Shown: positions 22,252-27,209 of the stretch, piece by piece | Numbering within the stretch: position 1 is the first letter of the stretch | Layout of the letters: the number at the start of each line of letters is the position of its first letter | Assembly: GCA_046484975.1 (NCBI GenBank) | Contig: JAWOHX010000011.1 | Span: 3,611 to 67,610, forward strand | Reading direction: 5' to 3' | From: Clostridia bacterium | GTDB taxonomy: Bacteria; Bacillota; Clostridia; DUPQ01 | DNA: 64,000 bases | Program-made: the position numbers and the translations under genes | Notes under the pieces: model-generated | Databases searched by the model: none | Told to the model about the DNA's origin: nothing | Seen by the model: the letters and a program-made list of their open reading frames with translations, nothing else

Positions 22252-23748
22252 ATGAACAACAGGAAAATATGGAAAGCACTGCCGATAATCATGGCACTGA
22301 TGTTGGTCACTGTGCTCATCCTGGGATCGACCCGGGTCTTAGGGACCCGGGACAGCGGTAGAATCCAGGCCTATGTGGACCTGGTGACCCAGAACCATTA
22401 TGAATACCTTCCGGTGGAAAACACCTTCCCCAATATGATCAAAGGAGCCTTCGACAACACCGACCGTTATACCTATTTCCAGGAAGTCCGGACATACAGG
22501 AGTGAGATGGAGACCTATATCGATGCCACATACGTTGGAATCGGAATCTCCATGTCCCAGCTGGAGGAAGGGGCCCTGGTGGAGAACGTCTTTATCCATT
22601 CCCCTGCATACCATGCGGGCCTGAAGCCCGGGGACATCCTGGTGGAGGCCAACGGCATTTCCTTCCGGGGAAGGACCCTGGAATACATTGCCTCAAAGGT
22701 CAGGGGACCTGAAGACACGGTGGTGAGAATCGGGATCCTGAGAGACGGGGGGGGAGACATCATCCGCATGGACATCGTCCGAAAAAGCATCACCATTACC
22801 ACGGTGAACATGTTCATGGCCGGTGATACCGCATATGTCAGCATCTCCTCCTTCACCAACAACACCCCTGAGGAATTTGTGAAGGCTTTGTTGAAGATTG
22901 ACGACGCAAAGATCATCAATATTGTCATCGACATCCGTGACAACGGGGGAGGTTCGGTGTACGGGGCCCTGAATGTGGCCAACCAGCTGCTTTCCAATGA
23001 GATCATCACCAAGATCTATTATAAATTCCCTGGCTACCTGAACCTGGCTTACCTGGCCGATGAGAAGGAGATCCCCTACAATGTGGTCCTGCTCATGAAC
23101 AAGAAATCCGCCAGCGCATCGGAGATCCTGGCAGGCGCCCTGAAGGACAACGGACGGGCAGTGCTGATGGGGGAGACCAGCTTCGGAAAAAGCCTTGTAC
23201 AGTCCTCCTATGAGCTCATGACACCGGAGGTGTTCGAGCGGTATGCCAACCTGTACGGGAGCAGGAGCATGCTGGTATTAAACAACATGCTTGCCATGAA
23301 CGGAATCACCCTGCAGGATCATGAAATCCTGGGTGCCGCGAAGATCACCATCGGGGAATATGTCACACCAAAGGAAACCAGGATCAACTTGACCGGCATC
23401 CGCCCCCATATCCTTGTTCCCTATGACGGCCCCACTGTCTTAAGAGCCGGCATCGGCAAAGCCCTTCAGTCCCTGGATGAATACGGTCCGGGGATGCGGG
23501 ATGAAGAGATCAAAAAGGCGAAAGCCATATTGCAGGCCCTGGGCTACGATTCGGGAGCGCCCGGTGACCATTATGACGGGAAAATGGAGGAAGCCGTCAG
23601 GCTTTTCCGAAAAGACGAGGGGCTACCTTCCGGAGAGGGCCTCGACCATGCCGTGCAGGCCGCACTCAACCTGAGGATTTTACCTGCCATCATCGGCACG
23701 GACATCCAGCTGGAAAAAGCATTCCAGCAGGTGGGGGAGGTGGAATGA
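22252..23748 (+). CDS. S41 family C-terminal processing peptidase with PDZ and C-terminal peptidoglycan-binding domain
   Basis: PDZ (GLKPGDILVEANG). Catalytic Ser in KKSASASEILAGAL and Lys in GETSFGKS. C-terminal PG_binding_1 (LGYDSGAPGDHYDGKMEEAVRLFRKDEGL). N-terminal TM anchor. Confidence 0.85.
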   Translation: MNNRKIWKALPIIMALMLVTVLILGSTRVLGTRDSGRIQAYVDLVTQNHYEYLPVENTFPNMIKGAFDNTDRYTYFQEVRTYRSEMETYIDATYVGIGISMSQLEEGALVENVFIHSPAYHAGLKPGDILVEANGISFRGRTLEYIASKVRGPEDTVVRIGILRDGGGDIIRMDIVRKSITITTVNMFMAGDTAYVSISSFTNNTPEEFVKALLKIDDAKIINIVIDIRDNGGGSVYGALNVANQLLSNEIITKIYYKFPGYLNLAYLADEKEIPYNVVLLMNKKSASASEILAGALKDNGRAVLMGETSFGKSLVQSSYELMTPEVFERYANLYGSRSMLVLNNMLAMNGITLQDHEILGAAKITIGEYVTPKETRINLTGIRPHILVPYDGPTVLRAGIGKALQSLDEYGPGMRDEEIKKAKAILQALGYDSGAPGDHYDGKMEEAVRLFRKDEGLPSGEGLDHAVQAALNLRILPAIIGTDIQLEKAFQQVGEVE

Positions 23749-23749
23749 C

Positions 23750-25186: not shown

Positions 25187-25187
25187 C

Positions 25188-27209
25188 ATGGAGTTGAACT
25201 TCAGGCAGATTCATCTGGATTTCCATACCAGCGAGCTGATTGGCGGCGTGGGAGGAGAATTCGACCCCCGGGAATTCGCAAGGACCCTGAAGGATGCCCA
25301 CGTGGGATCCGTGACTTGCTTTGCCCGGTGCCACCACGGCATGATGTACTACACATCCGAGAAATTCCCGGAGAGGATCCATCCCGGGCTCGGCCACAGG
25401 AATCTGCTGAAGGAGCAGATCGACGCCTGCCATGCCCTTGGCATCAGGGTGCCGGTCTACATCACGGTCCAGTGGGACTATTACACCTCCGTCAGGCATC
25501 CCGAGTGGCTGATGCGGAACGAGGACGGGTCACCTGTCTTCCAGCACTCCCTCAAGCCCGGGTTTTATCACGGTCTGTGCGTCAACACGCCATATGCGGC
25601 TTTCCTTGCAGAGCATACCCGGGAAGTCCTGGAGACCCTGGATGCCGACGGGATCTTCTTTGACATCGTGCAGGAAAAACCCTGCGCCTGCGAATATTGC
25701 ATTTCATCCATGCGGGAAAAAGGATACAACCCCTTGTCCGCGGAGGATCGCACCCGCCATTATGAAGGGGTGCTGGCAGTATTTCGGAAAAACATGACGA
25801 CGCTGGTAGAGGAAGTCAGGCCCGGGATTCTAGTGTTTTACAATTCAGGGCATATCAGTTACAAGACCAGGAAAGCCATGGATCCCTATACCCATTTCGA
25901 GCTGGAGAGCCTGCCTGGAGGGGAGTGGGGCTACATCCATTTCCCCGTCGTGATGCGATATGCACGGAACCTGGGAAAGGACTGCCTGGCCCATACGGGG
26001 AAATTCCACACCACATGGGGTGATTTTCATTCCTTCAAGAACAGGGAAGCCCTGGAATACGAGTGCTTCCGGATGCTGGCCCTCAACGCCAAGTGCCTCA
26101 TCGGGGACCAGCTGGAACCGGGCGGAAAGCTGTCAGGTCCTGTCTACTCCCTCATCGGGGGCGTCTACGGACAGGTGGAGAAGAAGGAGGCGTGGTGCAA
26201 AAACGCAAAACCTGTCACGGAAATCGGAGTGTTTACCCCGGATGAGTTCCAGGGTTCGGGCCTTGACCATCTCCCCGAGGCACAGATCGGAGCGGCCAGG
26301 ATACTGGAGCAATGCGCCTGCCAGTTCGACTTCATCGATACGGACATGGATTTCTCAAGATACAAACTGCTGGTCATGCCCGATCGCATCACGGTGGACG
26401 AGGCGTTCCACCGGAAACTTAAGGCATATCTGGAGGAGGGGGGGAAGATCCTGGCCTCCTATGAATCGGGAATGGACGCGGCAAAGGAGTCTTTCACCCT
26501 CAGTGAGCTGCAGGTGGAGATTTCCGGTGAGACACTGGATGACTCCGGCCTGCCAGTGAAAGGAAAGCCATACCAAAACAATGATTTTGCAGACTATGTG
26601 GTGCCGGCCGGACCAATTGGCAAAGGGCTTTGCGAGACGGACCATGTCATGTACATCAAGGGCATGGAGGTCAGGGCGACGGGCTCCGGAGTGGGAGTCC
26701 TGGACGCCAATTCCTCCCTGTTCAACCGTTCCTACAAGCATTTCTGCTCCCACAACCAGGCGCCTTCCAGCGGGAAAAAGGCGTATGATGCCGCAGTCAT
26801 GACCCGTAACACCATCTATTTCGCCCACCCCGTTTTTCTCACCTACCATCACAAATCCCCGAAATGGGTGAAGGTATTGGTGAAGAATGCCATCGGGATG
26901 CTGTTGCCCGGACAATTGGTGGAGCACGACGGACCCAGTACACTGCTGACGGCCCTGAATGAACAGGAAGGCAGGTATGTACTGCATCTGCTTCATTACA
27001 TCCCGGAACGGAAATCGGAAAAACTGGACATCATCGAGGATGTGATCCCCCTGTACGACCTGAAGGTGCGGCTGCGGCTGCCAGGCAACGCAAAGACCCT
27101 GCGGATGGTTCCGGAAGGGGAGGATATGGTTTTCACCCGGGATGGGGACGGAATCGTGTTCACCATCCCGCGGATGGAAGGGCACTGCATGCTGGAAATC
27201 AATTGTTGA
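25188..27209 (+). CDS. putative glycoside hydrolase, GH42-like TIM barrel with beta-galactosidase trimerisation-like domain
   Basis: N-terminal (beta/alpha)8-like region (HLDFHTSE...[14 protein letters not shown]). A central region resembles the GH42 class-I glutamine-amidotransferase-like domain ([33 protein letters not shown]). Start moved to MELNF at 25188. Confidence 0.5.

Follow-up and report, generated by a model that had tools for sequence, protein, structure and literature searches.

A CtpB-type S41 protease and its predicted catalytically dead paralogue, encoded by apparently coupled genes in a Clostridia bacterium

The window analysed here is a 64,000-nucleotide stretch of DNA from a Clostridia bacterium, numbered from its first letter. 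It contains three closely spaced genes on the plus strand: A and B, whose products share the S41 peptidase fold, and a glycoside hydrolase gene. The open reading frames and the single nucleotide between A and B that were described in the first-pass annotation were confirmed. The features are as follows.

22252-23748, plus strand: gene A, 498 aa, predicted to encode a secreted, catalytically competent CtpB-like S41 C-terminal processing protease (signal peptide about aa 1-31, PDZ aa 94-166, S41 core aa 192-389, PG_binding_1-like tail aa 416-459)
23113-23202, plus strand: triad codons of gene A, namely Ser288 (23113-23115), Lys313 (23188-23190) and Gln317 (23200-23202)
23736-23752, plus strand: A-B junction, with an SD GGAGG (23736-23740) within the last codons of A, the A stop TGA (23746-23748) and the B start ATG (23750-23752)
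23750-25186, plus strand: gene B, 478 aa, predicted to encode a secreted, catalytically dead S41 paralogue (signal peptide about aa 1-26, two N-terminal helices aa 31-62, PDZ aa 75-144, S41 fold aa 180-318 onward, PG_binding_1-like tail aa 400-453)
24551-24640, plus strand: former active-site codons of gene B, namely Gly268 (24551-24553, Ser site), Asn293 (24626-24628, Lys site) and Val297 (24638-24640, Gln site)
25188-27209, plus strand: GH151-family alpha-L-fucosidase homologue, 673 aa (Pfam GHL6 and GH42M), a variable neighbour

Protein A has the hallmarks of a working enzyme. A PDZ domain (PDZ_6, 1.8e-11) precedes the Peptidase_S41 domain (PF03572, 2.7e-36; 125 bits against a cut-off of 24), and a PG_binding_1 match follows (4e-7). 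The top sequence match in the PDB is Bacillus subtilis CtpB (1e-40), to which A aligns in two stretches, the N-terminal part and the residues of the C-terminal domain. HMM alignments to the solved CtpB and CtpA structures place the motifs SASASE, FGKS and LVQ on the CtpB triad columns, with Ser288, Lys313 and Gln317 of A in the columns of Ser309, Lys334 and Gln338. A has, then, both the Ser/Lys dyad of family S41 and the orienting Gln of the CtpB group. We compared nine genomes (the window and relatives L001-L006, L090 and L091). All nine A proteins keep the triad, the NGGG loop and an Arg or Lys at the position of the CtpB sensor Arg168. Scores against curated NCBIfam models lie under the cut-offs, slightly so for TIGR00225 prc (199.8 against 218.6 bits) and by a wide margin for CtpB (NF045589, 141.5 against 633); the lmo1851 family (NF052377, 186.3 against 725) is missed as well.

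Protein B is assembled from the same parts. Pfam and signal prediction bear out the common layout proposed at first pass (signal peptide, PDZ, S41 and a PG_binding_1-like tail): B matches Peptidase_S41 PF03572 (8.3e-14), PDZ_6 (3.9e-7) and PG_binding_1 (2.7e-7), and both N-termini are predicted Sec-type signal peptides. B also scores under the NCBIfam cut-offs for CtpB NF045589 (65.4 against 633 bits) and lmo1851 NF052377 (90.3 against 725). Both proteins carry a helical insertion of 40-45 aa after the Lys/Gln motif, which CtpB lacks.

What B does not have is the catalytic apparatus. The motifs quoted in the first-pass annotation (SASASE...FGKS in A, GAGE...AGNS in B) are exact, and its claim that B is a dead paralogue holds: alignment to the solved structures puts TAGAGE, AGNS and LYV of B on the CtpB triad columns, yielding Gly, Asn and Val. 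Across the 16 B-clade sequences tabulated, the Ser site is always Gly, the Gln site is never Gln, and the Lys site is never Lys, being instead N, Y, Q, V, L, F, S or E. The NGGG loop is replaced in all 16, with xxSMN standing there in all nine B proteins of the syntenic genomes, and these nine also lack an equivalent of Arg168, the PDZ 'sensor' Arg. B has the fold and the PDZ domain of family S41 without its Ser/Lys dyad and, on these alignments, is a catalytically dead, non-peptidase homologue.

Could B still be an enzyme, either a protease that uses non-canonical residues or a novel hydrolase on the S41 fold? Its strong conservation (dN/dS 0.15) would fit, as would the invariance of Glu271, Asp214 and Arg216 in its core. 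However, these three residues are likewise invariant in active S41 enzymes and are therefore structural rather than new catalytic residues. The S41 core of B (aa 166-385) has no invariant Ser, Thr, Cys, Lys or His among the seven orthologues aligned, and no alternative Ser/Lys pair is conserved in the protease core, a point on which the first-pass annotation had staked its reading. Moreover, the triad and the NGGG loop are replaced throughout the B clade, and the Lys site varies freely, as expected once catalytic constraint is released. On the list of invariant residues we rejected alternative catalytic residues, and we consider an enzymatic B very improbable.

Outside the active site, the resemblance to CtpB that had been noted from the motifs extends to the whole fold. 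The AF2 model of B (pLDDT 89.5, pTM 0.85) has helices at aa 31-44 and 51-62 and C-terminal helices in aa 399-475. Its best Foldseek matches are the CtpB chains 4C2C/4C2E (about 470 columns, E 1e-26), a length that covers both dimerization modules. A and B each have the CtpB-type architecture, in which an N-terminal two-helix motif and a C-terminal four-helix domain flank PDZ, cap and core. Dimerization of CtpB, which its activity requires, runs through an N-terminal four-helix bundle and the C-terminal helical domains (PMC3808539, PMC8764530); the C-terminal helical domain is a dimerization domain that merely resembles peptidoglycan-binding domains (PMC3808539). The 'peptidoglycan-binding tails' of the first-pass annotation are thus upheld as PG_binding_1 Pfam matches, and cell-wall binding by them stays putative because the homologous CtpB domain serves for dimerization. 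The identity of this C-terminal domain is 44% in B and 44% in A. One dimer contact differs: the CtpB hairpin tip bears Arg280 and contacts the neighbouring protomer (PMC3808539), and all nine B proteins have a 7-aa deletion at this tip.

The PDZ domain of B has a conservation pattern of its own. The Gly of the carboxylate-binding loop is invariant, and directly past the loop lie E90, K91 and R93, invariant in B at positions where A varies. This suggests that the B domain may recognize a specific PDZ ligand.

The active and dead genes travel together. Pairing in relatives was the other point on which the first-pass reading hung, and the A-B pair is present in all nine genomes. The tight coupling is equally constant: in nine of nine, the spacer runs from -4 to +1 nt (1 nt in the window) and the 3' end of A contains an SD-like purine run 6-10 nt before the B start. 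As a negative control, 80 unrelated S41 loci contained no second S41 gene within 4.5 kb among the matches listed. These loci came from a scan with the A-clade alignment and generic S41 patterns; they are distant (best 32% identity among the matches listed), and genomes of the clade itself are not among them. A scan of genome contigs with B alone as the query found no relatives. Word-indexed protein searches returned three and five B orthologues and missed known ones in syntenic loci, so these low counts reflect search sensitivity, not rarity; an exhaustive HMMER search gave about six B-clade clusters at 50% identity.

B is an intact open reading frame of 474-479 aa in the nine genomes, with 30-54% identity to the B of the window. 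For the closest pair, L006/L091, dN/dS is 0.150 for B against 0.146 for A; this is the only informative pair, most others being saturated (dS undefined or >1). By this measure B is under purifying selection, like A. B does evolve faster (mean pairwise identity 38%, against 46% for A), as might a decaying duplicate, an unprocessed pseudogene that is still open by chance. The conservation data refute that reading, to which we assign practically no probability: the frame is intact in nine divergent genomes at this dN/dS, the AF2 model is confident and B has invariant motifs of its own. These sequences are best explained by an ancient pair of CtpB-type S41 proteases, A active and B dead, encoded by translationally coupled cistrons.

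The third open reading frame is of a different kind. Its ATG at 25188 lies 1 nt past the B stop; we take this start rather than an upstream TTG at 25122 because the protein is 673 aa in all five relatives that have the gene. The first-pass annotation called the product 'GH42-like' and of uncertain family, and neither description survives. It matches the GH151 structure 6TVK, ALfuk2 of Paenibacillus thiaminolyticus, over its full length (E 8.7e-138; query 3-670 against chain 30-684), and Pfam finds GHL6 (6.7e-42) and the GH42M middle 'trimerisation' domain PF08532 (1.1e-9). The conserved motifs GIFFDIV (Asp), HFELESLP (Glu) and FCSH (His) align with ALfuk2 D154, E235 and H503, a numbering that assumes native Met1 to be residue 30 of the deposited chain; in ALfuk2 these are the catalytic Asp and Glu and a complementing His (PMC10154630). 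Full-length likeness and the three residues place the protein in GH151, its activity and specificity being predictions from sequence only. The GH42 catalytic domain (Glyco_hydro_42) gave no Pfam match, and PDB GH42 chains match only at about 371-433 (E at least 0.001). We rejected a GH42 beta-galactosidase identity, the sole GH42 match being to the middle domain; the catalytic domain is of the GHL6/GH151 type.

The hydrolase had also been proposed to extend a cell-envelope module with A and B. The 1-nt gaps between all three genes in the window, the lack of a terminator-like site between them and synteny in five relatives would agree with that. However, no signal peptide was found in the hydrolase, which is thus predicted to be cytoplasmic, and it is a full-length ALfuk2 homologue with conserved catalytic residues. 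Its gene is present in six of the nine syntenic genomes; L001, L004 and L005 lack it between B and the following gene, with A-B intact. Furthermore, all genes from ddl to the hydrolase point the same way and are unrelated housekeeping genes. We regard a three-gene module as most unlikely and, given the missing signal peptide and the absence from three of nine genomes, place the GH151 protein outside the protease module. The annotated genes around the locus (ddl, murI, DUF1934, argS, pyrG, greA, lysS, a STAS/sigma-factor module, ribosomal proteins and probable rpoB/rpoC) give no clue to A-B function.

What might a dead paralogue do beside an active protease? We lean, at slightly better than even confidence, towards B serving A as a non-catalytic subunit or adaptor, probably within a CtpB-like ring that is heterodimeric. 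A and B would be co-produced from the coupled cistrons and both exported by their Sec signal peptides. A would be the enzyme; B would keep the CtpB scaffold (N-terminal two-helix motif, PDZ, cap and core, C-terminal helical domain) without anything needed for catalysis or for the PDZ-to-active-site switch. B would join A by N- and C-terminal contacts, as in the ring-shaped B. subtilis CtpB dimer, and the outcome would be an asymmetric ring with a single working protease tunnel. There B could be a built-in adaptor or regulator, recruiting a partner, for example, via its own conserved PDZ surface; alternatively, it might position or gate A. Substrates may be cell-envelope proteins, as with other C-terminal processing proteases. 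We infer this complex, with its stoichiometry, direction of regulation and substrates, the A:B association itself from homology to a homodimeric relative, gene coupling and fusions in other lineages. Against the ring speaks the hairpin-tip deletion in B, which takes away one CtpB dimer contact.

The fusions are two unrelated metagenomic proteins. P0147 is a single 1037-aa open reading frame with a dead S41 module and then an active one; P0256 (925 aa) has the active module first and the dead one second. The dead module of P0147 is not clearly nearest to the B clade, and that of P0256 groups with another dead family, so these proteins indicate that the dead-plus-active combination recurs in S41 rather than that this A binds this B. 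Dead S41 proteins can also act alone, as suggested by the standalone family P0004-P0011 (TAGAGE, FG[SA]G), which has no active S41 gene within 6 kb on either side.

By the same token, B might act alone as a secreted, non-catalytic PDZ/S41-fold binder rather than joining A as a subunit. As a decoy or protector, it might bind and shield the C-termini targeted by A, and hence be an antagonist; it might otherwise be a cell-wall-anchored scaffold. The P0004-P0011 family is a precedent, the CtpB dimer-interface hairpin tip is missing from B, and the invariant Gly of the PDZ loop is kept together with the B-specific invariant residues. Yet all nine genomes strictly keep the gene order and the -4 to +1 nt coupling to A, a pattern typical of proteins needed in fixed proportion. 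Both CtpB dimerization modules are retained, the C-terminal one conserved as well in B as in A, and fusions of dead with active modules occur in two other lineages. We judge an independent B unlikely, though to be taken seriously.

The subunit reading can be pushed further. Tentatively, and with somewhat less than even confidence, we propose that A and B form an obligate asymmetric CtpB-like ring with one catalytic tunnel, in which the dead paralogue fills the adaptor or regulator role of the unrelated TPR lipoproteins NlpI and LbcA in Gram-negative bacteria, and that such a dead-plus-active solution has arisen repeatedly, including in the P0147 and P0256 fusions. If true, this ring would be a previously unrecognized class of heteromeric C-terminal processing proteases.

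Among known systems, B. subtilis CtpB (4C2C/4C2E; Mastny et al. 2013, PMC3808539) has the same domain order as A and B, and shares with A the Ser/Lys/Gln triad, the carboxylate-binding loop and the Arg168-type sensor. Unlike A-B, CtpB pairs two active protomers as a homodimer and has no dead partner, and nothing ties the A-B locus to the SpoIV sporulation signalling pathway. In Escherichia coli Prc-NlpI and Pseudomonas aeruginosa CtpA-LbcA, an S41 protease needs a non-catalytic partner for targeting or activation, to which the proposed role of B would be analogous (PMC8764530, PMC11021448). NlpI and LbcA, however, are TPR lipoproteins unrelated to the protease, whereas B is a dead paralogue of it, and the A-B host is a Firmicute without an outer membrane.

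Dead paralogues that are kept by selection and work with an active enzyme are familiar from ClpP/ClpR, FtsH/FtsHi, the inactive proteasome beta subunits and iRhoms, all of other protease clans than S41. Vertebrate IRBP is a non-peptidase S41 homologue, with the fold but not the catalytic dyad. Unlike A-B, it is eukaryotic, binds retinoids and is built from repeated dead modules; it has no PDZ domain and is not known to have an active partner. A literature search for a dead S41 or Ctp paralogue, or for a mixed active-inactive S41 arrangement, found nothing relevant, and as far as it showed, A-B would be the first S41 case of a ClpP/ClpR-like arrangement.

Cell-wall hydrolases, sporulation signalling and virulence are all controlled by C-terminal processing proteases, for which a central question is what holds them inactive and directs them to particular substrates. 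Two solutions are known: in CtpB a homodimer is gated by the substrate, and in Prc-NlpI and CtpA-LbcA an unrelated lipoprotein serves as the adaptor. A dead paralogue that is conserved and co-translated with the protease would add a third. Its impact is limited by the clade being known solely from metagenome-assembled genomes. Both A (MFO7635803.1) and B (MFO7635804.1) carry the NCBI label 'S41 family peptidase', so genome-based counts overstate the number of proteases in these organisms. To flag dead S41 homologues more broadly, one could search for the Ser-to-Gly signature T-x-G-A-[GA]-E.

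The gene for a CtpB-like S41 protease (A) is directly followed by one for a paralogue (B) that keeps the domain architecture and has lost the catalytic residues. These two genes and the next are co-directional and lie where the first-pass annotation had placed them, with 1 nt between A and B:

22252-23748, + strand: A, S41 protease, 498 aa
23750-25186, + strand: B, 478 aa, start 1 nt past the A stop
25188 (ATG) to 27209, + strand: third ORF, 673 aa, start 1 nt past the B stop

A Pfam scan finds PDZ, Peptidase_S41 and PG_binding_1 domains in A as well as B (Peptidase_S41 E-values 2.7e-36 and 8.3e-14, respectively), and Sec-type signal peptides are present at the N-termini of A, B and all orthologues. 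The source record is an NCBI metagenome-assembled 'Clostridia bacterium'; MFO7635803.1 (A) and MFO7635804.1 (B) are each named 'S41 family peptidase' by NCBI.

Non-peptidase S41 homologues exist, IRBP for example, and by its sequence B is another. The best solved relative of A is Bacillus subtilis CtpB (E 1e-40); the A motif SASASE...FGKSLVQ aligns on CtpB Ser309, Lys334 and Gln338, the catalytic triad of that enzyme (Mastny et al., PMC3808539), which places the triad of A at Ser288, Lys313 and Gln317. A does not reach the NCBIfam cut-off of either CtpB or the lmo1851 family, and we read it as an ordinary, if unclassified, CtpB-like S41 protease. Aligned over the catalytic region to P. aeruginosa CtpA, H. 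pylori CtpA and CtpB, B reads TAGAGE...AGNSLYV, with Gly268, Asn293 and Val297 at the triad positions; this column assignment was confirmed when every sequence collected was tabulated on an HMM anchor. In place of the NGGG loop, presumably the oxyanion/substrate loop, B has SISMN. Every A, and no B, has R or K at the position of CtpB Arg168, the PDZ 'substrate sensor' through which ligand binding acts on the protease cap. A 7-aa deletion has also removed from B the hairpin tip that in CtpB bears Arg280 and contacts helix alpha2 of the adjacent protomer (PMC3808539). Residual or new enzymatic activity in B is unlikely: across an alignment of seven B orthologues the protease core has no invariant Ser, Thr, Cys, Lys or His, and thus no displaced Ser/Lys dyad was found. 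The initial description of B as a dead paralogue stands.

B, itself non-catalytic, is very probably a conserved partner with a functional tie to A. The A orthologue group comprises about 17 clusters at identities of at least 40%, followed by a sharp fall to 31%. We took the genomic context of eight A orthologues together with the window. In all nine genomes a B orthologue of 474-479 aa lies immediately after A, within a shared synteny of GH18, MgtC, flavin reductase, Ddl, MurI, DUF1934, ArgS, A and B, and the catalytic set is complete in A and wholly absent in B. The co-conservation of an active/dead pair, raised by the initial reading, was thus borne out in 9/9 cases. Moreover, the spacer between A and B is -4, -1 or +1 nt in these genomes and a GGAGG-like Shine-Dalgarno sequence lies within the last codons of A, the layout expected for translational coupling. 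No second S41 gene was found in 80 control S41 loci across bacteria (4.5 kb flanks each). An exhaustive HMMER search with a B profile over 1.84 billion cluster representatives returned only about six B-clade clusters before scores dropped to the level of ordinary active S41 proteins, so the arrangement is a property of a single narrow, uncultured Clostridia lineage.

B is kept by selection. All B orthologues are intact, at 30-54% identity to B of the window. L006 and L091, the sole pair of related loci close enough for unsaturated dS, give dN/dS values of 0.150 (B) and 0.146 (A). The C-terminal domain is equally conserved in both proteins (44%), and B has invariant residues of its own (E90, K91 and R93), directly past the PDZ carboxylate-binding loop and variable in A. 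The notion that B is a decaying duplicate, weighed with these values and with its somewhat faster evolution overall (mean pairwise identity 38% vs 46% for A), is unlikely.

The main alternative, which we regard as rather doubtful, is a role of B that does not involve A, as a binding, decoy or scaffold protein. Standalone dead S41 proteins do occur: a family of about 434 aa (about 431-436; P0004-P0011) has no PG-binding-like tail, carries Ser to Gly (TAGAGE) and Lys to Ser/Ala (FG[SA]G) replacements with Gln retained, and has no active S41 neighbour in two contexts (6 kb flanks each). In both (L087:6001-7311 and L088:6001-7296) the gene lies between RuvX and GNAT acetyltransferase genes, near penicillin amidase and ResB/CcsA genes; one member of the family is named 'carboxyl-terminal processing protease' by JGI. 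Dead modules recur and are sometimes covalently joined to an active one, as in two single polypeptides that each hold a pair of full S41 modules. P0147, a single 1037-aa ORF incomplete at a contig edge (L089:3-3116), has a dead module (TSGAAE, AGD), a low-complexity linker, an active module (TASASE, YGKARVQ) and PG_binding-like tails. P0256 (925 aa; codon usage GC-rich, judged by its Ala/Arg/Gly-rich sequence) has the reverse order, its dead module (TLGAAE, FGY) being nearest to the P0004-P0011 group. These recurrent and fused modules support functional coupling in general, rather than proving that A binds B. P0256 scores 357 bits, below cut-off, against the NCBIfam 'MXAN_5808 long Prc' family (TIGR03900, 973 positions), which may be related to it. 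Both modules are apparently active in the two-module proteins P0224, P0203 and P0263.

The predicted fold of B is that of CtpB. A confident AlphaFold2 model from a 52-sequence alignment (pLDDT 89.5, pTM 0.85) has as its top PDB matches five CtpB entries, with about 470 columns aligned, followed by CtpA of Pseudomonas and Helicobacter, D1 protease and Prc. The model contains two N-terminal helices and a C-terminal helical bundle. The N-terminal helices of CtpB build an intermolecular four-helix bundle, and the other side of its ring-like dimer, on which activity depends, is made by the C-terminal domains; these 'resemble, despite distinct function' a peptidoglycan-binding domain (PMC3808539; PMC8764530). 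The C-terminal domains of CtpB dimerize, so the tails of A and B, reported initially as peptidoglycan-binding, are at least as likely to be dimerization modules; the PG_binding_1 match itself holds for both. Past the Lys/Gln motif, A and B carry an insertion of 40-45 aa (A residues 319-363, window 23206-23340; B residues 303-345, window 24656-24784) that B. subtilis CtpB lacks and that their nearest active relatives, P0149 and P0040 among them, also have. It forms two helices in the B model (305-315 and 320-329), and the phmmer alignment of A with CtpB jumps over A residues 320-362.

In the mechanism that we favour, with modest confidence, A and B would be produced in fixed proportion and exported. 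Contacts of the CtpB type at the N- and C-terminal ends would join them in an asymmetric ring that has a single catalytic tunnel and in which B serves as an adaptor or regulator derived from a paralogue. Of this, the analysis shows the architecture, the lost catalytic residues, the selection on B, the gene coupling and the existence of dead-plus-active fusions, and from there we infer the A:B complex, its stoichiometry, the direction of regulation and the substrates. Active proteases with a dead paralogue as partner are familiar from other clans (ClpP/ClpR, FtsH/FtsHi); full-text literature searches returned no description of a dead S41 paralogue paired with an active C-terminal processing protease (CTP). 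The pair is clean, conserved and testable, but limited to uncultured organisms.

The third ORF is a variable cytoplasmic neighbour outside the protease module. It had been called GH42-like, of uncertain family. Pfam finds GHL6 (6.7e-42) and a GH42 middle domain (1.1e-9) and no GH42 catalytic domain, and the protein matches over its whole length PDB 6TVK (E 8.7e-138), the GH151 alpha-L-fucosidase ALfuk2 of Paenibacillus thiaminolyticus. The ALfuk2 nucleophile D154, acid/base E235 and complementing H503 (PMC10154630) align with a conserved Asp, Glu and His of the window protein, provided that the deposited chain has the native Met1 as its residue 30. The gene adjoins B, and its length of 673 aa is identical in 5/5 relatives possessing it. 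A three-gene envelope module, as once proposed, is unlikely: the product has no signal peptide, and the gene is absent from L001, L004 and L005, where A-B is intact. In L001, the closest relative of the window (A 60% identical), only about 300 nt of intergenic sequence (L001:9438-9745) separates B from greA, with neither the GH151 gene nor pyrG in between.

The pair and the GH151 gene belong to an unbroken co-directional run that starts with ddl, murI, DUF1934 and argS (window 18225-27209, + strand). Neighbouring genes overlap or lie no more than 11 nt apart, and the window has no terminator-like site from argS to pyrG. Co-transcription of the pair with housekeeping genes, two of them for peptidoglycan precursors, is therefore possible. 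In L002, argS is called at 386 aa (L002:5355-6515) and lacks the tRNA-synt_1d catalytic core, against 562-591 aa in all other loci; either the gene is truncated or the assembly may have lost part of it. A sigma-factor module of unusual gene order (window 31837-33642, + strand), kept in L002, encodes, in this order, a STAS anti-anti-sigma protein (106 aa) and proteins of 117 aa (unknown), 241 aa and 137 aa. Among these the STAS protein was scanned directly for domains; the last two are read through their L002 counterparts, which show Sigma70 domains (241 aa) and a HATPase_c_2-like domain (137 aa). Another possible cell-wall-associated protein (436 aa; window 11262-12572, + strand) is encoded about 10 kb upstream of A-B; three PG_binding_1 repeats (1.2e-48) are the only domains recognized in it.
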